Shown here piece by piece: positions 1 to 50,426 of a DNA stretch of 64,000 nt (within the stretch, counting starts at the first letter, position 1; every line of letters begins with the position of its first letter). The translations under genes were made by a program, and so were the position numbers. Under the pieces are notes generated by a model. It was given only the letters and a program-made list of their open reading frames with translations, was not told where the DNA came from and searched no databases. This stretch comes from a virus (Duplodnaviria; Caudoviricetes): positions 1-64,000 of the IMG/VR virus record IMGVR_UViG_3300028797_002495; one strand, written 5' to 3'.

Positions 1-447
1 AGAGATTGTGATTATCTTGTTCAGTTAAGTGATAGTGAGGGATTTTGTTATTCTATCATAGAAGCTCTTGAATTAGGAGTTCCTGTTATTACTACTCCTC
101 TTCCAGTGCTCAAAGAGCTGGGTGTACGTGATGGTATAGATGGTTATTTTGTTCCATTTGATATGAATGGGATTGATTTAAATAAAATATATAATAATAT
201 TCCAACTGTTAATTACACATATAATAATCAAGAATGTATAGATGAATGGATTGAAATTCTTGGAGATCCTAATCCTGTTGGAGATTATGTATATCATGAA
301 GAAGACAATTTAATTAAAGTTCAAATTACAAATGATTATTATGATACATACTTCCAAAGAAATATGAGTACCAGAGACGTTGTATGGATGCCAGTAGATA
401 GAGCTATTTATATTTCTAATTCGGGATATTGTAAGATTTTAGATTAG
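1..447 (+). CDS. Glycosyltransferase, GT-B/GT4 family, C-terminal part (gene starts before the window)
   Basis: Frame is open from base 1: RDCDYLVQLSDSEGFCYSIIEALELGVPVITTP, containing the GT4 E-x7-E motif followed by GVPVI. The ORF-track start at 106 is internal. Confidence 0.8.
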   Translation, partial: RDCDYLVQLSDSEGFCYSIIEALELGVPVITTPLPVLKELGVRDGIDGYFVPFDMNGIDLNKIYNNIPTVNYTYNNQECIDEWIEILGDPNPVGDYVYHEEDNLIKVQITNDYYDTYFQRNMSTRDVVWMPVDRAIYISNSGYCKILD

Positions 448-3194: not shown

Positions 3195-6100
3195 ATGGCT
3201 GAAAAAGGAATCATTATTGACGTTGGTTTTGCGCCACAATGGAAAGATTTTTTAGATAGTATAGATAAAGAGTTATCTAAACTGGATTTAGATAAATATT
3301 TAAATCTTGATGAAGCTTTTGAAAAACAGTCTAAAGAAGTTAGAGCAAAATTAAAACAACTAAAAGTAGAAATAGATCAAGCTATTAATGGAATTGGAAA
3401 AGATCCAATTAAGGCATTTAATGAATTAAATAAGTCAGTTAAATCATTATCTGGCGTAGTTCTTAATATGGCTAAAGCCATGCCAGATGGAGCTAAATAT
3501 GCTCAAGAAATTAACTCGATAACAAATTCAGTTGATAAATTAGAGACTGAGGCTCATGGTGCTATAACTGTTTTAGAGGAATTGAATTCTACTTCTGCTA
3601 ATAAATTACAATTTAAAGATCAGTTAAATCAAATTAGAGATTTATATGGATTATTAGAAAAGGCAAGTAGGCTAATTAATAAAAATCAAGGAGCAAGTCA
3701 ATTTGATGTAAACAAATATAATGATAATCAAGAACAATTATTATCAGAACTTAAAGCAGAATATCAAAAATATTTAGATATTAATAATCAAATTGAAGAT
3801 ATTCAAGATGATACTGTTTTATCCACTGAATCAATGAATGATAAATTGGATAATGCATATCGATCTTTAGCTCAAACCGTTGGCAATATAAATAAATTAT
3901 CATCTACAATGGCTCAAATTGGAATTGGATTTGATATAGAAATCGAACCCAATTTTTCAGTTGAGGATGTAAATACCGAAATAGATAGCCAAATTGAAGA
4001 AATTAGAGATTATCTTAATAAAGCAAAAGCCAGATTACAAAATGAATTTACTCAATTAGGTGGAGATTTAAATCTTTCAGAATATTTTTCTAAAAGAGTT
4101 TCTAAACAAGAAAAAATTAAAATTCCAGTAGGAATAGATGAATCATCAAAATCAAAATTATTACAAGATACAAAAGATTTGATTCAATCGGTTCAATCAA
4201 AAATTACAGAGCCTATATTAGTTGAAGTTCAATTAGTTTCTGCATATCAATCTCGTGGAAATCAAGAACTTTTATCTCAGATTCAAAAAGAAATAGATAA
4301 TATTGATGACGGAGAAATAACTGAAAAACTTCGTGGTCTAATAGATAAAATGAATAAGCGTGTTGAAAACGCATTAATGTTTAATATTTATGTTAATACT
4401 CAAAACGCTACAAATCAAATAAGACATTTTAAGAAAGAAATAAAAGAAGAAATATCTGAAATTCAAAAACTCTTAACTATTAATCCAGAATTTGAGTTAA
4501 CTCCTGAAGTAAGACAAAAACTTGTAGATGAGATCAATAAAGTTCAAAACGAAAATCCTTTAAAGGTAGATCTTGACTTTGGATTAGAATCTAAAAATTT
4601 ACAAAAAGAATTATTAGATTTAAATAATATATATAAGGGATTAGAAGCTATAAAATCGGCTGTGGACGCTAAATCAGCGGCTTTCATAGAAGAAGGTAAA
4701 AAAGTTGATTTTGTATCTGATAAAGAACAAAGAGATCTTGATGTTGTAAGACGTTGGGTCGAAAGAATTACTAAGGCGGTAAAAGAAAAATCTGATGCTT
4801 TTATTGCTTCTGGTAAAATAGTAGATAAAATAGCTAATCAAGAACAGAGTTCTTTAGATAAAGTTAAAGTACAAGTTGAAGTAGATAATTATGCTGACAT
4901 AGAACAAGAAATAAATAAGGCTGTAGAAGCATTAAATAAACTTATTGCAACAGGCACAAAAGGAGATAAATTAACATCTTTATTAAAAAATTTACGTTCT
5001 TCGTTATTAACTTTATCAAATGATAAAAGTTCTGATAAAATAAAAGCCTTTGCAGATAATCTAAAAGAAATACAGACGGCTATTAAGCCTTTATCAAATA
5101 TAAAAGATAATACATTTTTATCTTCTATTCAAGACATACTTAATAAAGGTAATGAATTAAAAACATTTGCTGAAATATTAAAATCAACAAAAAAAGAATT
5201 ACAAAATGCTAAAGACGTTTTAGATCAAGGTAGTTCAAATGTAGGAAGTCTAAATCTAGAAAACTATTCTGATGTTTTAAAACAGCGTGCTTTAAATAAT
5301 ATTCCAGATATAGATTATAAATTGATGAGCCAGTCACTTGAAGCAACAGCTGAAGGATTGGTAAGGATTACTACTCTTATTAAAACTGCTAATGGAGAAT
5401 ATTTAAGATATATTCATACTTCTACAGATGGAGAAGAAATTCAACAAAAGAAAATAGAATCTGGAACTGCTAGTATTTTAAAACAAGCTCAAGCCATAGA
5501 AAGATTAAACGATAAGGCAAAAACCAGTGAAACATTACAAAAAATTGGTGCTGTAACACCTAATACTGAAAAATGGCAAGAATTAGTTGAGTTAGTTGAA
5601 AGCTTTGGAATTGCAATAAAAGATGTTACATCTATAGAACAAAATATAGACGAATTTGGATATGAATCATTTAGAGTTTTTCATGGAGATGGATTACGTA
5701 CCACTTTAGGAATGAACTCTGCGGATATTTTATTTGAGAAAAATGCAATTGTTGATTTAGATAAAGCGACTAAAGAATTCGAATCAACCATCAAGAAATT
5801 ACCGGCTGAATTTAAAAAAGCCTTTAAGGATGACGGTCTTGGAACTGGAACATTTATTAAAGACATCCAGAAATTACTTGAGTTATTTCAAAAACTTCAA
5901 GTTTTAGGTGCCTCTGGTTTAGATATTAATATTGAAGATTATAAACAAGAAATTGATAATTTACAACAATCAATATCTAATATATTTAAATTTGATCAAT
6001 CTTCTGTAACTAAAGATTTTGAACAAGAATTTGTAAATATTAGAAATAACTTTTTAGAATTATTTAAAACAATTACTCAAGGAACATCTATGAGTGATGA

Positions 6101-43357: not shown

Positions 43358-44317
43358 CTACATACTCTTTCTTTCTGCAATCTCTGCCATTTTAGCAGCG
43401 TTAGATCTAGTATAACCATGTACTCTTGAATACTGTAGATAACCATTCATTCTATCAATCTTGGTTATCATTGAACTGCCACATATTGGACATACGTCCA
43501 TTTCAAGTTCTTCATGACCACAATCTTCACAATATGCCAATGAAAGATTTACGCCTTCGTAGAAGCCGATTTGCATAGCTCTGCGAACGATTGATTTAAT
43601 TGCTTGAATATTATATCCAAGATGATATCTACAATACTGTATTTTTCCACCATTGAAATAATCCCAAAATCTTCTTTCAGCATCTTGTTTTTGAATGGGA
43701 CTAATGTCTTCTGTTACATGACAATGGAATGAATTACTTACATAAGGACGATCTGATACTTTTTCAACCACTCCATATTTCTTACGGAACTGTTCTACTT
43801 GTGTTCCACATAAACTCTCTGCTGGTGTTCCGTAGATCGCATAGAGTATTTGGTCTTCTTCTTTAATCCTATCAACATAATCATTGATATATTTCATTAC
43901 TTCTAATGGAAACTGTCCGTCCTCTAATATTGATTTTCCATTATATAATTCATTTAATTCATTTAATGCAGTAATTCCAAAACTCATTGTCATAGGTTTA
44001 AGCAATGGCTTGATTTTTTCATCAGCCTTAAGATGACCATTAAGTAATCCACCTTGCATCCATGCCATAGGGTTTGTACTTGCTTTCTTTTCACCTAAAA
44101 AGTCGTATGTTCTCTTATGTAGATTTCTTATCATTTCAAGATAATAATCAAGGACTTTATAGAAATCTTTATTTTCTTGTCTTGATTTTGCAAGAATCAT
44201 TGGTAAATGCAATGATATTACGCCAAGATTGCAACGAGATATAAATATTGGTACATCGTTTTCATCAGCCGGATGCATTCCACCACGTTCAAACCAAGGA
44301 CTTAAACTAGCTCTACA
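43358..44317 (-). CDS. nrdD: Anaerobic ribonucleoside-triphosphate reductase, exon 2
   Basis: CRASL continues the MG|CR active-site motif. CNLGVISL, TPAESL, CEDCG/CPICG Zn site and glycyl-radical loop RMNGYL. Confidence 0.95.
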   Translation of the reverse strand, partial: CRASLSPWFERGGMHPADENDVPIFISRCNLGVISLHLPMILAKSRQENKDFYKVLDYYLEMIRNLHKRTYDFLGEKKASTNPMAWMQGGLLNGHLKADEKIKPLLKPMTMSFGITALNELNELYNGKSILEDGQFPLEVMKYINDYVDRIKEEDQILYAIYGTPAESLCGTQVEQFRKKYGVVEKVSDRPYVSNSFHCHVTEDISPIQKQDAERRFWDYFNGGKIQYCRYHLGYNIQAIKSIVRRAMQIGFYEGVNLSLAYCEDCGHEELEMDVCPICGSSMITKIDRMNGYLQYSRVHGYTRSNAAKMAEIAERKSM

Positions 44318-45132
44318 CAAACCTTATAAATTTCATAAGGTTCAGACTATATCTTCACATATTATTCTGTAACCAAATAATATGTGCTCCGCACTTCCAC
44401 TTGAGGAATTTCACCTCAAATGTACTCTACTCGCTTCTTCATACAAGTTTTTCTCTTATATTATGCTTTCGATAGTCGTTTGACTTAAATGTAACTGAAT
44501 AAATAACCTAAATAATCTTCGTTAAGTTCACCTTTTAATACTCTAGCAATTTTATGTCTATCAAGTTTTAGTTGTTTACCACATTCTCTGATCGATTTAA
44601 AATTAAAGCTTTCTCCATTTATTATATTCACTGCTTTAATTTTGGTATTATTTCTATGTGTACGATTTCCGCTTTTCCAACCGTGTAAAACATTATATGA
44701 ATTTGTACACCATTCTAAATTATCTAACTGATTATTTAATTTATTACTATCTATGTGATTAATATATTTGTATTCATTCGGATTTGGAATGAAACAATGT
44801 GCTAAAATCACATGAACTCTTTGATGATGATTCTTACCAGTTTGATCTCGATATTGAACCTGCATATATCCGTCTGTCCCTTTATGAGGAGTTAATTTCA
44901 AACCGGTTCTTTTACTATATATATTTAAATTATCATCTACTAAAAATCCTTTATATTCTTTCAATACCTTTATCCTCAAAGGTATTTATTCAGTACATCT
45001 TTAGCACAGGATTATCTCTTTTGAGCCTTCCCTGTTAGCCATTCTATTAGTTGCCATTTCCTGCAATTACTTTCGTTAGAATGACACCCTAGATTTCTAG
45101 GTTCACGGAGTTTTACATGAGCTATATTACTA
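44318..45132 (-). mobile_element. Group I intron (815 nt) in nrdD
   Basis: P1 CATGGGT/GCTCATG with U.G. CTAACAGGG...CCTGTGCTAAAG, R GTCAAACGACTATC, S AAGATATAGTCTG, P9 CCTTAT/ATAAGG, terminal G at 44318. Splicing restores SLMG|CRAS. Confidence 0.93.
44485..44979 (-). CDS. Intron-encoded HNH homing endonuclease
   Basis: RVHVILAHCFIPNP...INHIDSNKLNNQLDNLEWCT..YN..H, with a C-terminal NUMOD1-like FKSIRECGK.L helix. Confidence 0.92.
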   Translation of the reverse strand: MRIKVLKEYKGFLVDDNLNIYSKRTGLKLTPHKGTDGYMQVQYRDQTGKNHHQRVHVILAHCFIPNPNEYKYINHIDSNKLNNQLDNLEWCTNSYNVLHGWKSGNRTHRNNTKIKAVNIINGESFNFKSIRECGKQLKLDRHKIARVLKGELNEDYLGYLFSYI

Positions 45133-46395
45133 ACCCATGAGGGAAATAACTTTCCCATATTTTTTATAAATATTAGCTATATATCCCTCTCCTGTAAGAG
45201 ATAAATAATCGGGATACATTGTTTTACTACTACACAAAACGGCTTTATCAAATAAATATTCGTAAGCCTTGCCGTCTCCATGTAGATTATCATCATATAA
45301 GAATGTTAATTTTGGAAAGAGTACTGGTTTCTTAAAACCATCTTTGCCCTGACCATCTCTTCTTACATCTAATGCTATTTCAGAAATAATCAATCCCCAC
45401 TTAGAAGTATTAATCCCAAAAGACATTGCAATAAACGGATAATCACCTCTTGAAGATCCAACTGTATTAAACTTATATTCCCAACCTTGGAATCCTTGTT
45501 CTATATCTCTTCTTACATCTGCTTCAGCATTCATCTTAGCATCTTCTGATGCCAATTCATAAATAGCATTTAATTGAACTTGATCTAAATCAGCCATATT
45601 AATGCCTGCCGCACGTAAAGTTTTTCTTTGTGTTGAAGTTGCCATATTATGATATTTTTTAAAGTATTTCTGATAAGACTTTTCAGCATACGGAGATAAA
45701 ATATCATCAACTTGTGGTATTGTAAAACCACCATACTGCTGGCTGGCAGCACTTAATACAATATCGCCGATTACGTCAAAGGCTGTATCAACAGTCTTGG
45801 GTTCGTTGTACCATATGTTACCCATTTCAAAACCGCCTTTAAGAACTCCACCAACATCAAATAAACAACAGTTGATTCCATCAAGTCTATCTTTCATATC
45901 GTTGATGTAGATATATCCATCTTCAGCAGCTTGTAATTCTTCTTTATTTAAGAAAAACTTTTGGTATAATTCTTTATTAAGCTGACCGTAGATCAAACTT
46001 CTTTGAGAACTTATCATGGCTGAATCAGTGTTGGCATTAGATACATCACCTATATATCTAATTTCTTGGCTCTTTTTATAAACTTCATCTAGCATCTTTA
46101 CAAAAGCGGTTTTATAATCTCTATATTGTTTATATGATTCTCCGACCTTTGGATAAAGTTCAGTAAGAGCATTTTCTACTATGATGTGCATATCTTCGAC
46201 CGGAACTAATTCCTCATCATATTCTTCAACATAGAAGTCTTCTTCAGCTATAATATCTGCAACACGATTGCATATTGCACTATAATCTTCTTCGGTAAGC
46301 TTTTGTAAAGCTCTGTGGGCAGATTTGTTACAAGCATCAATTATCTTTTGTTCGTCATACGGAACAATCACACCATTTTTCTTAATGACTCTCAT
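45133..46395 (-). CDS. nrdD: Anaerobic ribonucleotide reductase, exon 1 (spliced protein about 740 aa)
   Basis: ATP-cone start MRVIKKNG, NANTDS, YINDMKDRL..INCCL, SQQYGGFT, FPKLTF and MYPDYLS. Confidence 0.95.
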
Positions 46396-46412
46396 CTTTA
46401 GTACGCCTTTCT

Positions 46413-46811
46413 TTACTTCCAATAATGTTCTGTTATATAATTAACTGCTTCAAGCATTGAAGGAAGTACTACGTCACAAGCGTCTTTTGCCCAGGGATAA
46501 ACTTCAATTTTACCAAATCCAATAATTGGTTTATTTAAAGCTTGAGCAAATCCAATTTCGTAGTTAGTTCCACAGCTTGAATCAGAAAAATCAAGATTGA
46601 CAAGCAAGATATCACTTTCACGTAGATGATTTAAAAATAATTTTCTACATTCTTTATCACTAGCGGGAAGGAATGATACATAATCATAATGTCTATTAGG
46701 ATTAAATGTATTAAATTCACTTCCTAAAGCGGTACTTACATAATCTCTCCATGATGAACTAATTTCTTGGGATACGTTTCTACACGCTCCACTAAGATAT
46801 ATTTTCCTCAT
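46413..46811 (-). CDS. Nucleoside 2-deoxyribosyltransferase-like protein
   Basis: MRKIYLSGA, FNP, SDILLVNL and GTNYEIGFA..LNKPII motifs. Confidence 0.8.
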   Translation of the reverse strand: MRKIYLSGACRNVSQEISSSWRDYVSTALGSEFNTFNPNRHYDYVSFLPASDKECRKLFLNHLRESDILLVNLDFSDSSCGTNYEIGFAQALNKPIIGFGKIEVYPWAKDACDVVLPSMLEAVNYITEHYWK

Positions 46812-47371: not shown

Positions 47372-48019
47372 CTATTTATAAAAGTGGTGACAATTATCAC
47401 TAAACACATAATCACCGCCACTGAATTTTTCTTGCTTTGTCATAGAGTGGAACCACAAACAATCATCCGCAGCCGTAGCTACACAAAAAGCATATTCTAC
47501 AGCCAGCTTAGTTTCTTCATCAATTTCTGTTTTAGAAACATAAAATTGATTAGGTTGCATGATCACTTCGGTTAAAGTATCGGGGAATCTTTCGTTCTCA
47601 AGTCTTGCTAATACCACCGCTGCCACATGAGTTTTACTTTCAAAGTCAGCCCCGTGACATTCGCTTTCTACAACTCTTTCTAATAAATAAATCTCATCTT
47701 CGGAAAATACATCATCAATCCATTCGATCTCGCCATAGTCTGCAAATTCTTCATTCAAATCCTTATATGCTTTAAACCATTCAAGACTATCCTGAATATC
47801 ATTAATTTCATCAAGCCTTTCAAGATATAGATCTCTAGGATTTATTACTGTTTGAACTTCATAAACTATAGGCTCTATTGAATATTCTTCATAAACAACT
47901 TGTACTGGCTCTTTTTTAGGTGCTTCTTCAGTTAAAGCAATAGTTAAAATAAAAGCCAGTACATAAATAAAAATAACTACACAAATAAATATTAATACGT
48001 CTATAATTTTTCTTTTCAT
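47372..48019 (-). CDS. SleB-like cell wall hydrolase (Hydrolase_2) with N-terminal TM anchor
   Basis: TM at about residues 6-29. LLERVVESE...VAAVVLARL....FPDTLTEVIMQPNQF motif. Confidence 0.8.
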   Translation of the reverse strand: MKRKIIDVLIFICVVIFIYVLAFILTIALTEEAPKKEPVQVVYEEYSIEPIVYEVQTVINPRDLYLERLDEINDIQDSLEWFKAYKDLNEEFADYGEIEWIDDVFSEDEIYLLERVVESECHGADFESKTHVAAVVLARLENERFPDTLTEVIMQPNQFYVSKTEIDEETKLAVEYAFCVATAADDCLWFHSMTKQEKFSGGDYVFSDNCHHFYK

Positions 48020-48105
48020 CTAAGCCTCCAAAACTTTCTGATTAAAAATTCTTTGTTACCTATATAAATCAACCAACACGTTGGGCAATTATATATCCTT
48101 ATCAT
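48016..48105 (-). CDS. Possible 29-aa peptide
   Basis: AAAGGAG RBS, MIRIYNCPTCWLIYIGNKEFLIRKFWRLR, stop overlapping the next ATG. Confidence 0.35.
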   Translation of the reverse strand: MIRIYNCPTCWLIYIGNKEFLIRKFWRLR

Positions 48106-48149
48106 TTCATTAACTCCTTTAATTTAATCAACACTTAATACATTTAAAT

Positions 48150-48212
48150 AGTGTTGGTGGGATTCGAACCCACAGATGCGGCTACATCTCTCACCCTTTT
48201 GTGAGCAACACT
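48150..48212 (-). ncRNA. 63-nt tRNA-like perfect four-way-junction element
   Basis: AGTGTTG | CTCAC-AAAAGG-GTGAG | AGATG-TAGCCG-CATCT | GTGGG-TTCGAAT-CCCAC | CAACACT. Confidence 0.7.
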
Positions 48213-48299
48213 CGTCTTTGAAAGGAGGTTTACGCATGTCACAAGAAACAAAAAAGACATGGAGTAAAGAAATTGAACCTATTTGCAACTAGGTTCTCG

Positions 48300-48371
48300 C
48301 TGGGATAGTTGGATTCGAACCAACGCATAACAGAGTCAAAGTCTGTTGTCTTACCGCTTGACGATATCCCA
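48300..48371 (-). tRNA. tRNA-Gln (TTG), CCA not encoded
   Basis: TGGGATA/TATCCCA acceptor stem, ACAGA-CTTTGAC-TCTGT anticodon arm, GTTGG-TTCGAAT-CCAAC T arm. Confidence 0.95.
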
Positions 48372-48380
48372 GTATTTTTA

Positions 48381-48578
48381 TTATAATTCTTCAATTACTT
48401 TGAAAAAATTATATTCTCTATTAAGTTCTTCATAACGTTTAACCAAAACATCATGTCCGTTTTCTGAGAGCCAATTTTTTCCAAACTTAGCTACTATGTT
48501 GCAAACATGATAATCAGTTAATTCATGTTTAGGAATATTTATTCCTTTCTGATTTGTCCAATAATATTTTTCTTCCAT
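48381..48578 (-). CDS. Hypothetical protein
   Basis: AGGAGG RBS, 65 aa, embedded in the RNA cluster. Confidence 0.65.
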   Translation of the reverse strand: MEEKYYWTNQKGINIPKHELTDYHVCNIVAKFGKNWLSENGHDVLVKRYEELNREYNFFKVIEEL

Positions 48579-48589
48579 TTTAACCTCCT

Positions 48590-48733
48590 AATTTTGGGCA
48601 GTTCCAATGGGGGAGATGCTAAATCTAGTCTCATTACATTCTCACCGCTAGTTGTGAGCAACCCTTCTTGGCATTGTCATTCTCTGTGTGGTGTCCTGCT
48701 CTCTCACACATCATCTGGTCGCTATCCAGCCTC
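48590..48733 (-). ncRNA. Structured spacer RNA 1 (unassigned)
   Basis: GC-richer than flanks. Hairpins CTGG/CCAG, GTGTG/CACAC, CTCAC/GTGAG and GAGA/TCTC. Confidence 0.35.
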
Positions 48734-48817
48734 TGCACTCAGCGAGACTTGAACTCGCACGAGATAATTCTCAGCGGATTTTAAATCCGATTCGTCTGCC
48801 TATTCCGACATGAGTGC
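48734..48817 (-). tRNA. tRNA-Leu (TAA), type II
   Basis: GCACTCA/TGAGTGC acceptor stem, A73, D arm GTCGGAATAGGCAGAC, CGGA-TTTAAAA-TCCG anticodon arm, long variable arm, GCGAG-TTCAAGT-CTCGC T arm. Confidence 0.93.
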
Positions 48818-48820
48818 TTA

Positions 48821-48931
48821 ATCATGGGTAGGGACTCGAACCCTACATGATAGAACCCCTTTCCTAACATCAATCCTCCTTGCGTTCTATCTTTACCAAC
48901 TCTTTAACGTCTACCAATTCGTCACCATGAT
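48821..48931 (-). ncRNA. tRNA mimic A (no anticodon arm)
   Basis: ATCATGG/CCATGAT acceptor stem, D arm ACGAATTGGTAGACGT, internal helix GATAGAAC/GTTCTATC, T arm GTAGGG-TTCGAGT-CCCTAC. Confidence 0.7.
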
Positions 48932-48933
48932 TA

Positions 48934-49066
48934 CTAGAATATTACCGGATATCTAGGAGTTGTGTAGTGGATTACTTCCTTCCACATGGGATCAACTCAC
49001 ATCCCAAGGGACATTCTGCCACCTGCCCTCTAGGGGGAAGTTTATACGAATGCTTCCAAATCGGCT
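48934..49066 (-). ncRNA. Structured spacer RNA 2 (unassigned)
   Basis: GGAAG/CTTCC hairpin, then three consecutive hairpins GGGCA/TGTCC, TGGGAT/ATCCCA and GTGGA/TCCAC. Confidence 0.4.
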
Positions 49067-49180
49067 ATCATGGGTAAGGATTTGCACCTTACATGATGCT
49101 TGTTAGTTTTTCTGTACGTAGGAACTATGTAGCATCCAAAATACCTATACTATTGCGTCTACCTATTCCGCCACCATGAT
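49067..49180 (-). ncRNA. tRNA mimic B (no anticodon arm)
   Basis: ATCATGG/CCATGAT acceptor stem, Leu-like D arm GCGGAATAGGTAGACGC, internal helix GATGCT/AGCATC, T arm GTAAGG-TGCAAAT-CCTTAC. Confidence 0.7.
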
Positions 49181-49305
49181 AATCACTCTCTTAACATACT
49201 GCTTGCTCATTACGTGATTAAATCGAGCACTGTACTCCGTGTATGCTTGGAGTAGGTTTAGCATCACGCTGCATCCCCTCGGTCTTTTACGTGAATTCGA
49301 CTACT
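49181..49305 (-). ncRNA. Structured spacer RNA 3 (unassigned)
   Basis: Hairpins GCA/TGC, TACTCC/GGAGTA and TGCTC/GAGCA. Confidence 0.35.
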
Positions 49306-49394
49306 ATCATAGACAAGGACTCGAACCCTGCACACGATTTCCTACGTGACCACCGACTTGCATCGATGTACCTTGACCATTCAGTTACTATGAT
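49306..49394 (-). ncRNA. tRNA mimic C (type II-like, 6-nt anticodon-position loop)
   Basis: ATCATAG/CTATGAT acceptor stem, CATCGA-TGCAAG-TCGGTG arm, variable arm CACG/CGTG, T arm GCAGGG-TTCGAGT-CCTTGT. Confidence 0.65.
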
Positions 49395-49411
49395 TATTGG
49401 GGGATATATAA

Positions 49412-50323
49412 TCAATGATTTCTCATCATTTGATTTTTTACTTGTTCATTAATTAATTCTGCCATACTCGTATAAGCATTCATTCTAACATTTTGTTGAT
49501 GTTCTTCTTGAATCATATATCTTATCGCAGACTCAATAAATAACGGAGCTTTTTCCCTACCAGACAATTTGAAACGATTATAATTAATGTCAAGATAATC
49601 GTTTATTTCTTCTGGAAGAATCTCAATTTGTTTATATGAAGATTTATCTTTTGCCGTACACATCTTACAAAGATCATTCTTTATATATAATTGAGATTTA
49701 TTATAAGCTTCATAATGATCTCTTGCCCTTCTTGGACAATCTATTCCGCATTGTTCATCTACAAGAAGTTCAAATAAATTATGTGTTGTAAATGACGATA
49801 ACGCTTTTAAATACGGTATGTCTTTATTTTTATATTTAGATACTACTATAGTTGAATATTTATCTAAGTCTTCTGTAGTAATTGTTGCATCATTAATAAT
49901 TGATCTTGCAATTCTAATGTTCGGATATTTATCTCTGATATATTTTTCGAGAATATCAGAACATATTAATATTTCTATATCATATCTATTCGCAAGATCT
50001 AAAAGAGCGTTGCCATATCTATCGTATACATCATTTTCTTCAAGAAGAAAATTTGTGAAAGTAAACTGTATGTCTGACAAGAAACTTTTATAAAATGAAA
50101 TGATCATTTCAAGAGTTTCAATGTCGTATTGTTGCCCCATTATTAAGCGTCCACCATTCCAGATACAATTATTAGGACAGCCATATCCAACAAGTTTAAT
50201 ATCTCCTCTATTAATATTAGTATCAAGTAATGCATGATAAATATAATTTATTCTGTCAAAAATACCTATTTCAAAATATATTGGTACATGGAAATATACC
50301 GTGTTTTTATAATTAAATTCCAT
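49412..50323 (-). CDS. Peptidase U32-like, putative Fe-S protein
   Basis: AGGAG RBS before MEFNY. NNCIWNGGR, SDILEKYIRDKYP, LLVDEQCGIDCPRR..HY, C-terminal Cys and FKLSGR (compare the U32 KIEGR motif). The family assignment is by motif recall. Confidence 0.55.
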   Translation of the reverse strand: MEFNYKNTVYFHVPIYFEIGIFDRINYIYHALLDTNINRGDIKLVGYGCPNNCIWNGGRLIMGQQYDIETLEMIISFYKSFLSDIQFTFTNFLLEENDVYDRYGNALLDLANRYDIEILICSDILEKYIRDKYPNIRIARSIINDATITTEDLDKYSTIVVSKYKNKDIPYLKALSSFTTHNLFELLVDEQCGIDCPRRARDHYEAYNKSQLYIKNDLCKMCTAKDKSSYKQIEILPEEINDYLDINYNRFKLSGREKAPLFIESAIRYMIQEEHQQNVRMNAYTSMAELINEQVKNQMMRNH

Positions 50324-50347
50324 TACAACTCCTATATACGGAAAGGT

Positions 50348-50377
50348 GTGGGGACGAGTGCCTGTTCTCATCCCCAC
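50348..50377 (-). terminator. 11-bp GC-rich hairpin (terminator or attenuator)
   Basis: GTGGGGATGAG-N8-CTCGTCCCCAC. Confidence 0.55.
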
Positions 50378-50426
50378 TGTCAACAGAAAGGAGACGCATT
50401 AAGCATCTATATAAACCATGGAAGGT

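Follow-up and report, generated by a model that had tools for sequence, protein, structure and literature searches.

For about fifty years, stable RNAs in the transfer RNA (tRNA) clusters of phages T4 and T5 have stood unexplained (PMC3014915 for T4). In T4, tRNA-Arg, rnaD (species 2) and rnaC (species 1) lie in a row with gaps of 1 and 6 nucleotides (nt), rnaC and rnaD being 139 and 119 nt long; rnaC carries a T-arm-like element, GGGUUCGAAUCCC, and according to a review the role of both is still unexplained (PMC3014915). In the T5 record (NC_005859), RNA1 and RNA2 are annotated as 'tRNA-like stable RNA with unknown functions', and RNAI, RNAIII, RNAIV and RNA2H are annotated as well; RNA1 (144 nt), RNAI (107 nt), RNAIII (106 nt) and tRNA-His are butt-joined on the tRNA strand with gaps of 0-4 nt. 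Here we describe an array of comparable anatomy in a 64,000-nt stretch of viral DNA (hereafter the window), which covers positions 1 to 64,000 of the IMG/VR virus record IMGVR_UViG_3300028797_002495 (Duplodnaviria; Caudoviricetes; 81.8 kb, about 52% complete). In this array, two canonical tRNA genes are accompanied by three tRNA-like units (mimics A, B and C), by three spacers (eCB, eBA and e140) and by a four-way junction.

The array extends along the minus strand from position 49,394 to 48,150 (Table 1). A preliminary description, made from the sequence alone, had listed in transcript order mimic C, a spacer, mimic B, a spacer, mimic A, tRNA-Leu, a spacer, a small open reading frame (ORF), tRNA-Gln, a spacer and the four-way junction; this order was recovered exactly, and the spacer lengths it had given (125, 133, about 140 and 87 nt) were measured as 124, 134, 139 and 86 nt. 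The spacers had also been described as GC-richer than their surroundings, in agreement with a G+C content of 42-48% across 48,600-49,400 and about 27-33% on either side. Adjoining RNA units of the window are separated by 0-3 nt, tRNA-Leu, for example, beginning 2 nt after the discriminator of mimic A. The tRNA calls in the array were limited to Leu and Gln (ARAGORN and the Rfam tRNA model, gathering score 29 bits), and mimics A, B and C gave neither an ARAGORN call nor a match to the Rfam tRNA model even at E up to 10. No terminator-like site was found within the array, and one is located right behind tRNA-Gln; this hairpin is probably the 3' end of the operon, which places the four-way junction outside it.

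The window units thus have the anatomy of the T4 and T5 RNAs: they lie within a tRNA cluster, on the same strand, and abut tRNAs. The preliminary description had considered the array the best candidate in the window for an undescribed system, but the arrangement has a precedent in these annotated stable RNAs, some of which are tRNA-like and abut tRNAs. Compared with T4, which has two such RNAs at the end of its cluster, the window has six non-tRNA units against two tRNAs. Judged by eye, T5 RNA1 shows the tRNA-Leu-like frame of the mimics (U-G, a CCGGAAUUGGUAGACGG D arm, a long centre and a GAAGG-UUCAACU-CCUUC T arm), but its T stem has 5 base pairs (bp), whereas that of the mimics has 6 bp. 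The profile hidden Markov models (HMMs) of eCB, eBA and e140 and the covariance model of e140 found no match in the T5 tRNA region or in T4 rnaC and rnaD. Additionally, blastn of the complete array against cultured phages returned matches limited to the two tRNAs.

Outside phages, tRNA or tRNA-like folds abut other RNAs in mitochondrial tRNA punctuation and in the tRNA-microRNA-encoded RNAs (TMERs) of murid gammaherpesvirus 68, where RNase P and RNase Z set the RNA ends. In a comparison of anatomy alone, the tRNA-like folds of the window likewise directly abut flanking RNAs; they differ in having a bacterial host and bacterial enzymes, and the RNAs beside them are structured RNAs of 124-139 nt, not messenger RNAs or microRNA hairpins. 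The YrlA-type Y RNAs, bound by Ro60/Rsr, resemble the mimics in being non-decoding and in having a tRNA-like D/T elbow, and some of them lie in phage tRNA arrays. In YrlA, the tRNA-like part is distal to a Ro-binding stem built from the ends of the molecule, whereas the ends of the window mimics pair as a normal acceptor stem; the Rfam scan of the region gave no Y-RNA match. With class II tRNA-Leu (RF00005), the mimics share the 7-bp acceptor, U8, the D arm, the T arm and mostly a discriminator A, but they lack an anticodon arm, have a T stem of 6 bp and often a UGCAAAU T loop, and escape ARAGORN and Rfam. In Rfam 15, the GenBank records examined and the literature searched, the eCB, eBA, e140 and mimic families appear to be undescribed.

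We read the region as an operon of phage tRNAs that has largely become one of small RNAs, with ends set by the enzymes of tRNA maturation, and we assign this reading a probability of roughly 0.65. A single transcript would run from just past the gene of a 323-amino-acid (aa) protein to the terminator-like hairpin behind tRNA-Gln, and it would carry two decoding tRNAs, three non-decoding mimics derived from tRNA-Leu and three unrelated structured RNAs. In bacterial tRNA maturation, RNase P cuts at +1 and RNase Z cuts past the discriminator. In the array, an RNase P cut at +1 of a tRNA or mimic would generate the 3' end of the upstream RNA, and an RNase Z cut past the discriminator would generate the 5' end of the downstream RNA, the outcome being discrete RNAs of about 90-140 nt. 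Because the units abut at 0-3 nt, the host tRNA-maturation enzymes would define all ends, and the lack of an encoded CCA in these genes fits RNase Z. We infer co-transcription, cleavage by RNase P and RNase Z, and stability of the products. The anatomy, the conservation of the six non-tRNA units in other phages and their covarying folds are supported directly, and the butt-joined arrangement is conserved although the neighbouring units change between phages.

The three mimics, which were found by an acceptor/T-arm scan, share an AUCAURG acceptor paired at 7/7 positions in each, U8, a tRNA-Leu-type D arm, and a 6-bp T stem (GURAGG/CCUYAC) with a UKCRAAU loop that results in a 13-bp acceptor/T stack; none has a usable anticodon arm. 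Mimic B is a textbook family member, with an AUCAUGG acceptor, an exact match to U8-G9 and to the GCGGAAUAGGUAGACGC-type D arm, a GUAAGG-UGCAAAU-CCUUAC T arm and discriminator A. Mimic A has the acceptor of B, a ACGAAUUGGUAGACGU D arm near GCGGAAUAGGUAGACGC, an 8-bp long arm, a GUAGGG-UUCGAGU-CCCUAC T arm and discriminator U. Mimic C is a divergent member or paralogue of A and B, with U8-A9, D arm ACUGAAUGGUCAAGGU, a 7-bp acceptor (AUCAUAG/CUAUGAU), a 6-bp T stem with a UUCGAGU loop and a 4-bp extra arm. The central stretch measures 53 nt in A, 56 nt in B and 31 nt in C. An anticodon arm with a 5-bp stem and a 7-nt loop is absent from A and B, and the arm at the anticodon position of C has a loop of 6 or 8 nt. 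A 9-nt complementarity between an arm of mimic C and an arm of mimic B was taken as chance, as 7/300 shuffles reached it and 21 part pairs had been compared.

A first, stricter mimic pattern had no match in viral contigs. The family pattern consisted of the D-arm and T-arm motifs only, so that T-arm conservation in the wider sample is by construction, and the acceptor was not part of it. More than 117 viral contigs were among the matches listed, together with 29 GTDB genomes, mainly Firmicutes with a few metagenome-assembled genomes labelled otherwise; the GTDB matches include Leuconostoc, Weissella, Levilactobacillus, Facklamia, Paenibacillus, Heyndrickxia, Lachnospiraceae and Oscillospiraceae. 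In 122 unique family sequences with 78 different acceptor sequences, the acceptor was paired at 7/7 positions in 92 and at 6 or more in 115, whereas shuffled partners reached 7/7 in 3% and slid registers never did. U8 is present in 122/122, the discriminator is A in 61%, and CCA is not encoded. G.U exceeded A.C by 34 to 7, indicating that the structure is read as RNA from the array strand. A hypervariable centre of about 45-120 nt, with 119 distinct versions among the 122 members, replaces the anticodon and variable arms. The centres fold only mildly (mean z = -0.75) and do not favour 7-nt loops, a hairpin with such a loop following the D arm in 5/122.

Fourteen family members in bacterial loci were called by neither ARAGORN nor Rfam, and in most of these mainly Firmicutes loci the family member stands alone, with no tRNA called within the 5-8 kb of the locus. 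In two loci (L129 and L135), a family member is located 5' of terS and terL. Two cultured phages contain unannotated members: Leuconostoc phage LN34 (NC_024388, about 146..240), between an HNH gene and the genome end, and Enterococcus phage EFDG1 (KP339049, about 46494..46701), in the tRNA array right after the transfer-messenger RNA (tmRNA). In cos-type Leuconostoc phages, no more than about 180 bp separate the mimic from the genome end. The EFDG1 locus (L275, about 1975-2313) was observed to hold a tmRNA-like gene, the frame of which apparently encodes a tag ending in LAVA, 3 nt 5' of the family member of about 205 nt.

The preliminary description took the mimics for excision marks that free small RNAs. 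The conserved, butt-joined RNAs favour that part of the proposal, but the mimics are not mere cut marks, since the family is also found alone in mainly Firmicutes loci and the whole elbow is conserved. Considering the fully conserved D and T arms, the mimic family very likely has a job of its own. Charging (aminoacylation) of the mimics is conceivable; many family members combine G at T-loop position 55 with the 13-bp stack, which may interfere with charging. In related phages, we also observed at least three more families of tRNA-shaped RNAs that are over-long (102-120 nt) and are missed by tRNA finders (Table 1), some of them with a normal D arm and expanded anticodon and variable regions.

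A DNA polymerase search identified 16 related IMG/VR loci (43-69% identity), several of which hold large arrays (16, 13 and 8 tRNAs), and the order of Leu(UAA) and Gln(UUG) is kept in the larger arrays of related phages. Homologues of mimic B and of e140, the spacer behind tRNA-Leu, were found inside the tRNA arrays of these relatives by short-word BLAST, and further lineages were added through pattern scans of viral and metagenome contigs. The metagenome scan for e140 returned 82 stretches, 8 of which were genuine and 3 of these from new lineages (L047, L112 and L113); the remainder, mostly unrelated conserved coding sequence of gut bacteria, was rejected.

The alignment of e140 (A8) comprises ten sequences from 8 lineages, with 79% mean column identity and long invariant single-stranded runs. 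The consensus contains five helices and a covarying pseudoknot between the loop of the fourth helix and that of the fifth, an invariant long-range GCAG/CUGC pairing that joins the second-helix loop to the 3' tail, and about 50 invariant unpaired nucleotides; the window copy ends in ...GGAACUGCCCA. Paired cells amount to 93%, and both sides have changed in 17/39 pairs; none of 500 shuffles equalled this, and slid-register controls gave 30-48% pairing. The covariance model (R1) scored the ten copies at 122-158 bits; its search of 443 kb of related DNA and of the tRNA regions of T4 and T5 gave no further match. In 8/8 lineages, the 5' neighbour of e140 is tRNA-Leu, Glu, Tyr or Trp or a mimic at a distance of 0-3 nt, and in 5/8 the next tRNA begins (+1) 0-1 nt past the ...CUGCCCA end. 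In the other three (window, L047 and L113), e140 is the last RNA, and a ribosome-binding site and an ORF come next instead of a tRNA; these ORFs are unrelated, encoding a 65-aa protein, a primase fragment and a 114-aa protein. As a riboswitch or cis leader, e140 would therefore lack a consistent downstream gene class, tRNAs following in 5/8 lineages and unrelated ORFs in 3/8. A tRNA-shaped gene not called by ARAGORN was observed directly 3' of e140 in L006 (2412-2490) and L002 (5024-5100); with loop AUUUAUU and anticodon UUA, it may be an ochre-suppressor-type tRNA.

eCB was aligned from 4 lineages (A6, 80% mean column identity). Its 5' end, GUAGUCGA, lies directly past the discriminator of tRNA-Trp or a mimic in all 4, and the window copy is flush with the discriminator of mimic C on its 5' side and with +1 of mimic B on its 3' side. 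Two helices show compensatory changes, with 98% of the cells paired and 6 double-changed pairs, a result equalled by 1-2/500 shuffles. A small hairpin, covarying as UAUCG/CGAUA versus GCUAG/CUAGC, is inserted between the 3' end of eCB and the next unit in 3/4 lineages (L047, L127 and L125/L126). Such UAUCG-GAAAGA-CGAUA hairpins were seen 5' of tRNA-like units in L047 (1169-1190 and 767-788) and L127, with the variant GCUAG...CUAGC in L125, and may be a processing or spacer element.

For eBA, an HMM search gave a weak match only, and a motif scan then gave three further lineages. The 5' end of eBA, (A)GCC in the 4 lineages and GCC in the window copy, is located directly past tRNA-Thr, a long tRNA-like RNA or mimic B, and a tRNA-like unit always follows, namely mimic A in the window and a 62-nt mini unit in relatives. 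The first helix occurs in three compensatory versions; 91% of the cells are paired, 8 pairs are double-changed, and 0/500 shuffles equalled this. In the 3' half, the window copy has differing hairpins at roughly corresponding positions. The conserved 62-nt mini unit, present 3' of eBA or eCB, has a 7-bp acceptor, a AAACGGACUCAUAAGGCU motif and a UUCGACU T loop; it has the size of the four-way junction of the window and a dissimilar sequence.

In every lineage, each of eCB, eBA and e140 begins 0-3 nt past the discriminator of a tRNA or tRNA-like unit, and the 3' ends mostly lie 0-6 nt before the following unit. The indels in all three alignments are not multiples of three, indicating that the modules are non-coding; moreover, reading frames are not kept across the homologues. 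The preliminary description had noted that the spacers lack good ORFs. Many G-U pairs in the helices fit RNA transcribed from the array strand. The possibility that the spacers are unconserved, raised in the preliminary description, was also looked at: all three are conserved with compensatory changes in other lineages. Judged by these alignments, the three spacers are real conserved structured RNA genes and not filler.

Several observations weigh against the small-RNA operon. For eCB and eBA, the evidence comes from 4 lineages each, and the scored structures were drawn from the same alignments. No sigma-70-like promoter was found immediately 5' of mimic C. The 3' end of e140 in the window, L047 and L113 would not be set by RNase P, because an ORF and not a tRNA follows. 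The occurrence of the mimic family alone in prophages indicates that punctuation is not its sole role. In addition, the 13-bp acceptor/T stack (7+6, not 7+5) could shift or weaken the action of RNase P, RNase Z and the CCA enzyme.

Folded alone and compared with dinucleotide shuffles, the three spacers (z = -0.18, +0.24 and +0.50) and mimics A, B and C were no more stable, all z values falling between -1.2 and +0.5. Above-chance folds from the single sequence were obtained for the four-way junction (z = -3.4) and for the spacer that separates it from tRNA-Gln (z = -2.7). As the spacer values match those of shuffles, the spacer hairpins are not above chance from the window sequence alone; the earlier statement that each spacer folds into hairpins is thus not borne out by single-sequence folding, and the structures are backed only by covariation in related phages. 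Rfam 15 was scanned over 47,900-49,700 at the gathering threshold and permissively (E up to 10), with eCB and e140 also scanned alone. The region and both modules gave noise only, for example microRNA and long non-coding RNA models, and eCB, eBA and e140 matched no Rfam 15 family even at E up to 10. By eye, short motifs in eCB and e140 resembled conserved regions of RNase P as well as the cores of group I (IC3) introns; this likeness was dropped, because it implied two families that are unrelated to each other and neither was backed by a covariance model.

If the operon releases small RNAs as proposed, we would guess that their targets in trans are host tRNA metabolism, translation or tRNA-targeting defences. 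The mimics keep precisely those features of tRNA-Leu that tRNA-handling proteins recognise (acceptor, D/T elbow and mostly A73). A fuller version, which we consider rather doubtful, would make the array a trans-acting RNA toolkit against the host tRNA world, in which the mimics would be matured, CCA-tailed and perhaps leucine-charged decoys or carriers with hypervariable arms, and e140 possibly a new ribozyme or class of ligand- or protein-binding RNA and not a passive small RNA. Targets of such decoys might be, for example, tRNA-cleaving defence nucleases or tRNA-handling enzymes.

Alternatively, the tRNA-like units could be the sole products, and the spacers would act in cis as folding insulators, processing enhancers or regulators in 5' untranslated regions and would later be degraded. 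The Shine-Dalgarno site and ORF directly 3' of e140 in 3/8 lineages (window, L047 and L113) and the small covarying hairpin 3' of eCB in 3/4 lineages would suit such a role. However, the ORFs past e140 are unrelated and a tRNA takes their place in 5/8 lineages, the invariance and the pseudoknot of e140 go beyond what an insulator needs, and the T4 and T5 analogues are annotated as stable RNAs; we regard a purely cis-acting function of the spacers as unlikely.

The order of the modules differs by phage: Gln, mimic, mimic, eCB, mimic, e140 in L047; Trp, eCB, Gln in L125; Trp, e140, Leu in L038; and Thr, eBA, mini tRNA-like unit in L020. These varying orders and subsets argue against one large ornate RNA of the GOLLD/ROOL type, about 800 nt in a single fold with tRNA-like domains, which the preliminary description had offered as an alternative. 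GOLLD and ROOL are found in phages beside tRNA genes, and the array forms a continuous GC-rich block without a conserved ORF. Nevertheless, the helices of each module close inside that module, and Rfam, taken to hold both models, gave no GOLLD or ROOL match in the region at E up to 10, or in the scans of eCB and e140 alone, making a single large RNA very improbable.

A decayed tRNA array, in which the mimics would be pseudogenes and the spacers eroded tRNAs or intergenic DNA, all functionless, would account for the failure of tRNA detectors to see the mimics, for the shuffle-like folding of the isolated spacers and for the Leu(UAA), Gln(UUG) order kept in the bigger arrays of relatives. It is strongly disfavoured by the six units kept across lineages with compensatory changes, by acceptors that stay paired through 78 sequences in 122 members, and by the invariant single-stranded runs and covarying pseudoknot of e140, which are unlike pseudogenes. 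Finally, that the blocks are DNA-level signals for packaging, replication or recombination, as the mimic near the genome end of cos-type Leuconostoc phages might suggest, or short protein genes is hardly credible, given the G.U excess that points to one-strand RNA, the conserved tRNA-type D and T loops, the orientation of all units along the flanking tRNA genes and the frames not kept across homologues.

The four-way junction, counted as an array member in the preliminary description, lies beyond the terminator-like hairpin. It is a linker-free mini tRNA-like element of 7+5+5+5 bp with a UUCGAAU T loop. Its 5' half, together with 5 nt upstream, aligns to positions 64-99 of e140 with a score of 34 (shuffle mean 14, maximum 26; 0/2000) and is thus a partial e140 copy; the T arm alone matches relatives, and the best Rfam match was tRNA-Sec (17 bits, E = 4). 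From these alignments, the element appears to be chimeric, an e140 segment having been joined to the 3' half of a tRNA. On the plus strand, an 18-codon ORF was seen at 48,236-48,292, antisense to the spacer that separates the junction from tRNA-Gln (near-perfect Shine-Dalgarno AAAGGAGG, 7 nt, ATG), which may be chance.

The neighbouring genes of the window encode a DnaE-type DNA polymerase, NrdD, a cell-wall hydrolase and an HNH endonuclease, a large-phage set. The 65-aa ORF behind e140 had no match in Pfam, PHROGs or NCBIfam. A homologue with 58% identity sits elsewhere in a related phage (L011, 17258-17434), and the ORF is a real protein gene embedded in the array. Upstream of the array, a Cys-rich 323-aa protein (49,412-50,383, minus strand) ends 17 nt before mimic C. 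Searches of viral contigs and of PDB sequences retrieved nothing related to this protein, and Pfam, PHROGs and NCBIfam gave no significant match (NCBIfam ferredoxin E = 0.12, far under the cut-off); a link to U32-like Fe-S enzymes was unsupported by the Pfam, PHROGs, NCBIfam and PDB searches. On the minus strand at 43,358-46,422, nrdD is split into two ORFs (430 and 320 aa) flanking an HNH/NUMOD homing-endonuclease ORF (44,485-44,979), with a sub-threshold group I intron match at 44,324-44,450 (28.6 bits, E = 4e-5); nrdD probably carries a self-splicing intron. In L047 (1447-2728), a GIY-YIG-type endonuclease ORF is flanked on both sides by a copy of the start of a primase-like gene, a pattern typical of the insertion of a free-standing homing endonuclease.

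Table 1. Positions of the array units in the window and of homologous or similar units in related loci (L numbers).
Feature	Position	Strand	Size	Remarks
Mimic C	49394..49305	minus	90 nt	
eCB spacer	49304..49181	minus	124 nt	
Mimic B	49180..49066	minus	115 nt	
eBA spacer	49065..48932	minus	134 nt	ends 2 nt 5' of mimic A
Mimic A	48931..48820	minus	112 nt	
tRNA-Leu(UAA)	48817..48734	minus		canonical class II; ARAGORN; Rfam RF00005, 51.3 bits
e140 spacer	48733..48595	minus	139 nt	
Shine-Dalgarno site and ORF	48578..48381	minus	65 aa	just 3' of e140; strong site (AGGAGG); from ORF list
tRNA-Gln(UUG)	48371..48299	minus		canonical; ARAGORN; Rfam, 65.8 bits
Terminator-like hairpin with U-rich tail	48296..48275	minus		directly 3' of tRNA-Gln
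Four-way junction	48212..48150	minus	63 nt	separated from tRNA-Gln by 86-nt spacer
eCB homologues	L047 1040-1168; L125/L126 995-1120; L127 2412-2555			
eBA homologues	L020 4430-4566; L023 3352-3486; L277 1216-1353			alignment A9
Over-long tRNA-shaped RNAs	L004 3390-3500; L039 5066-5176; L038 13281-13393; L042 1622-1738			
Over-long tRNA-shaped RNAs	L004 3820-3928; L039 5350-5455; L042 1351-1453			
Over-long tRNA-shaped RNA	L038 11218-11457			
Mini tRNA-like unit	L020 about 4567-4630; L023; L277 (L038 13078-13139); L127		62 nt	

Stable RNAs in phage tRNA clusters are therefore not curiosities: in this array, non-tRNA units outnumber tRNAs, and structural selection clearly acts on at least four distinct RNA families. 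The mimic family spreads over phages and prophages of lactic acid bacteria, enterococci, bacilli, and gut and rumen Clostridia, and is absent from Rfam and from the GenBank annotations examined. Its presence in the cultured phages LN34 and EFDG1 makes processing, charging and phenotype directly testable, and e140, being compact, pseudoknotted and conserved at the level of ribozymes and riboswitches, is a good candidate for structural work. If these RNAs do manipulate tRNA metabolism or tRNA-directed defences, they would represent a new layer of phage-host conflict.

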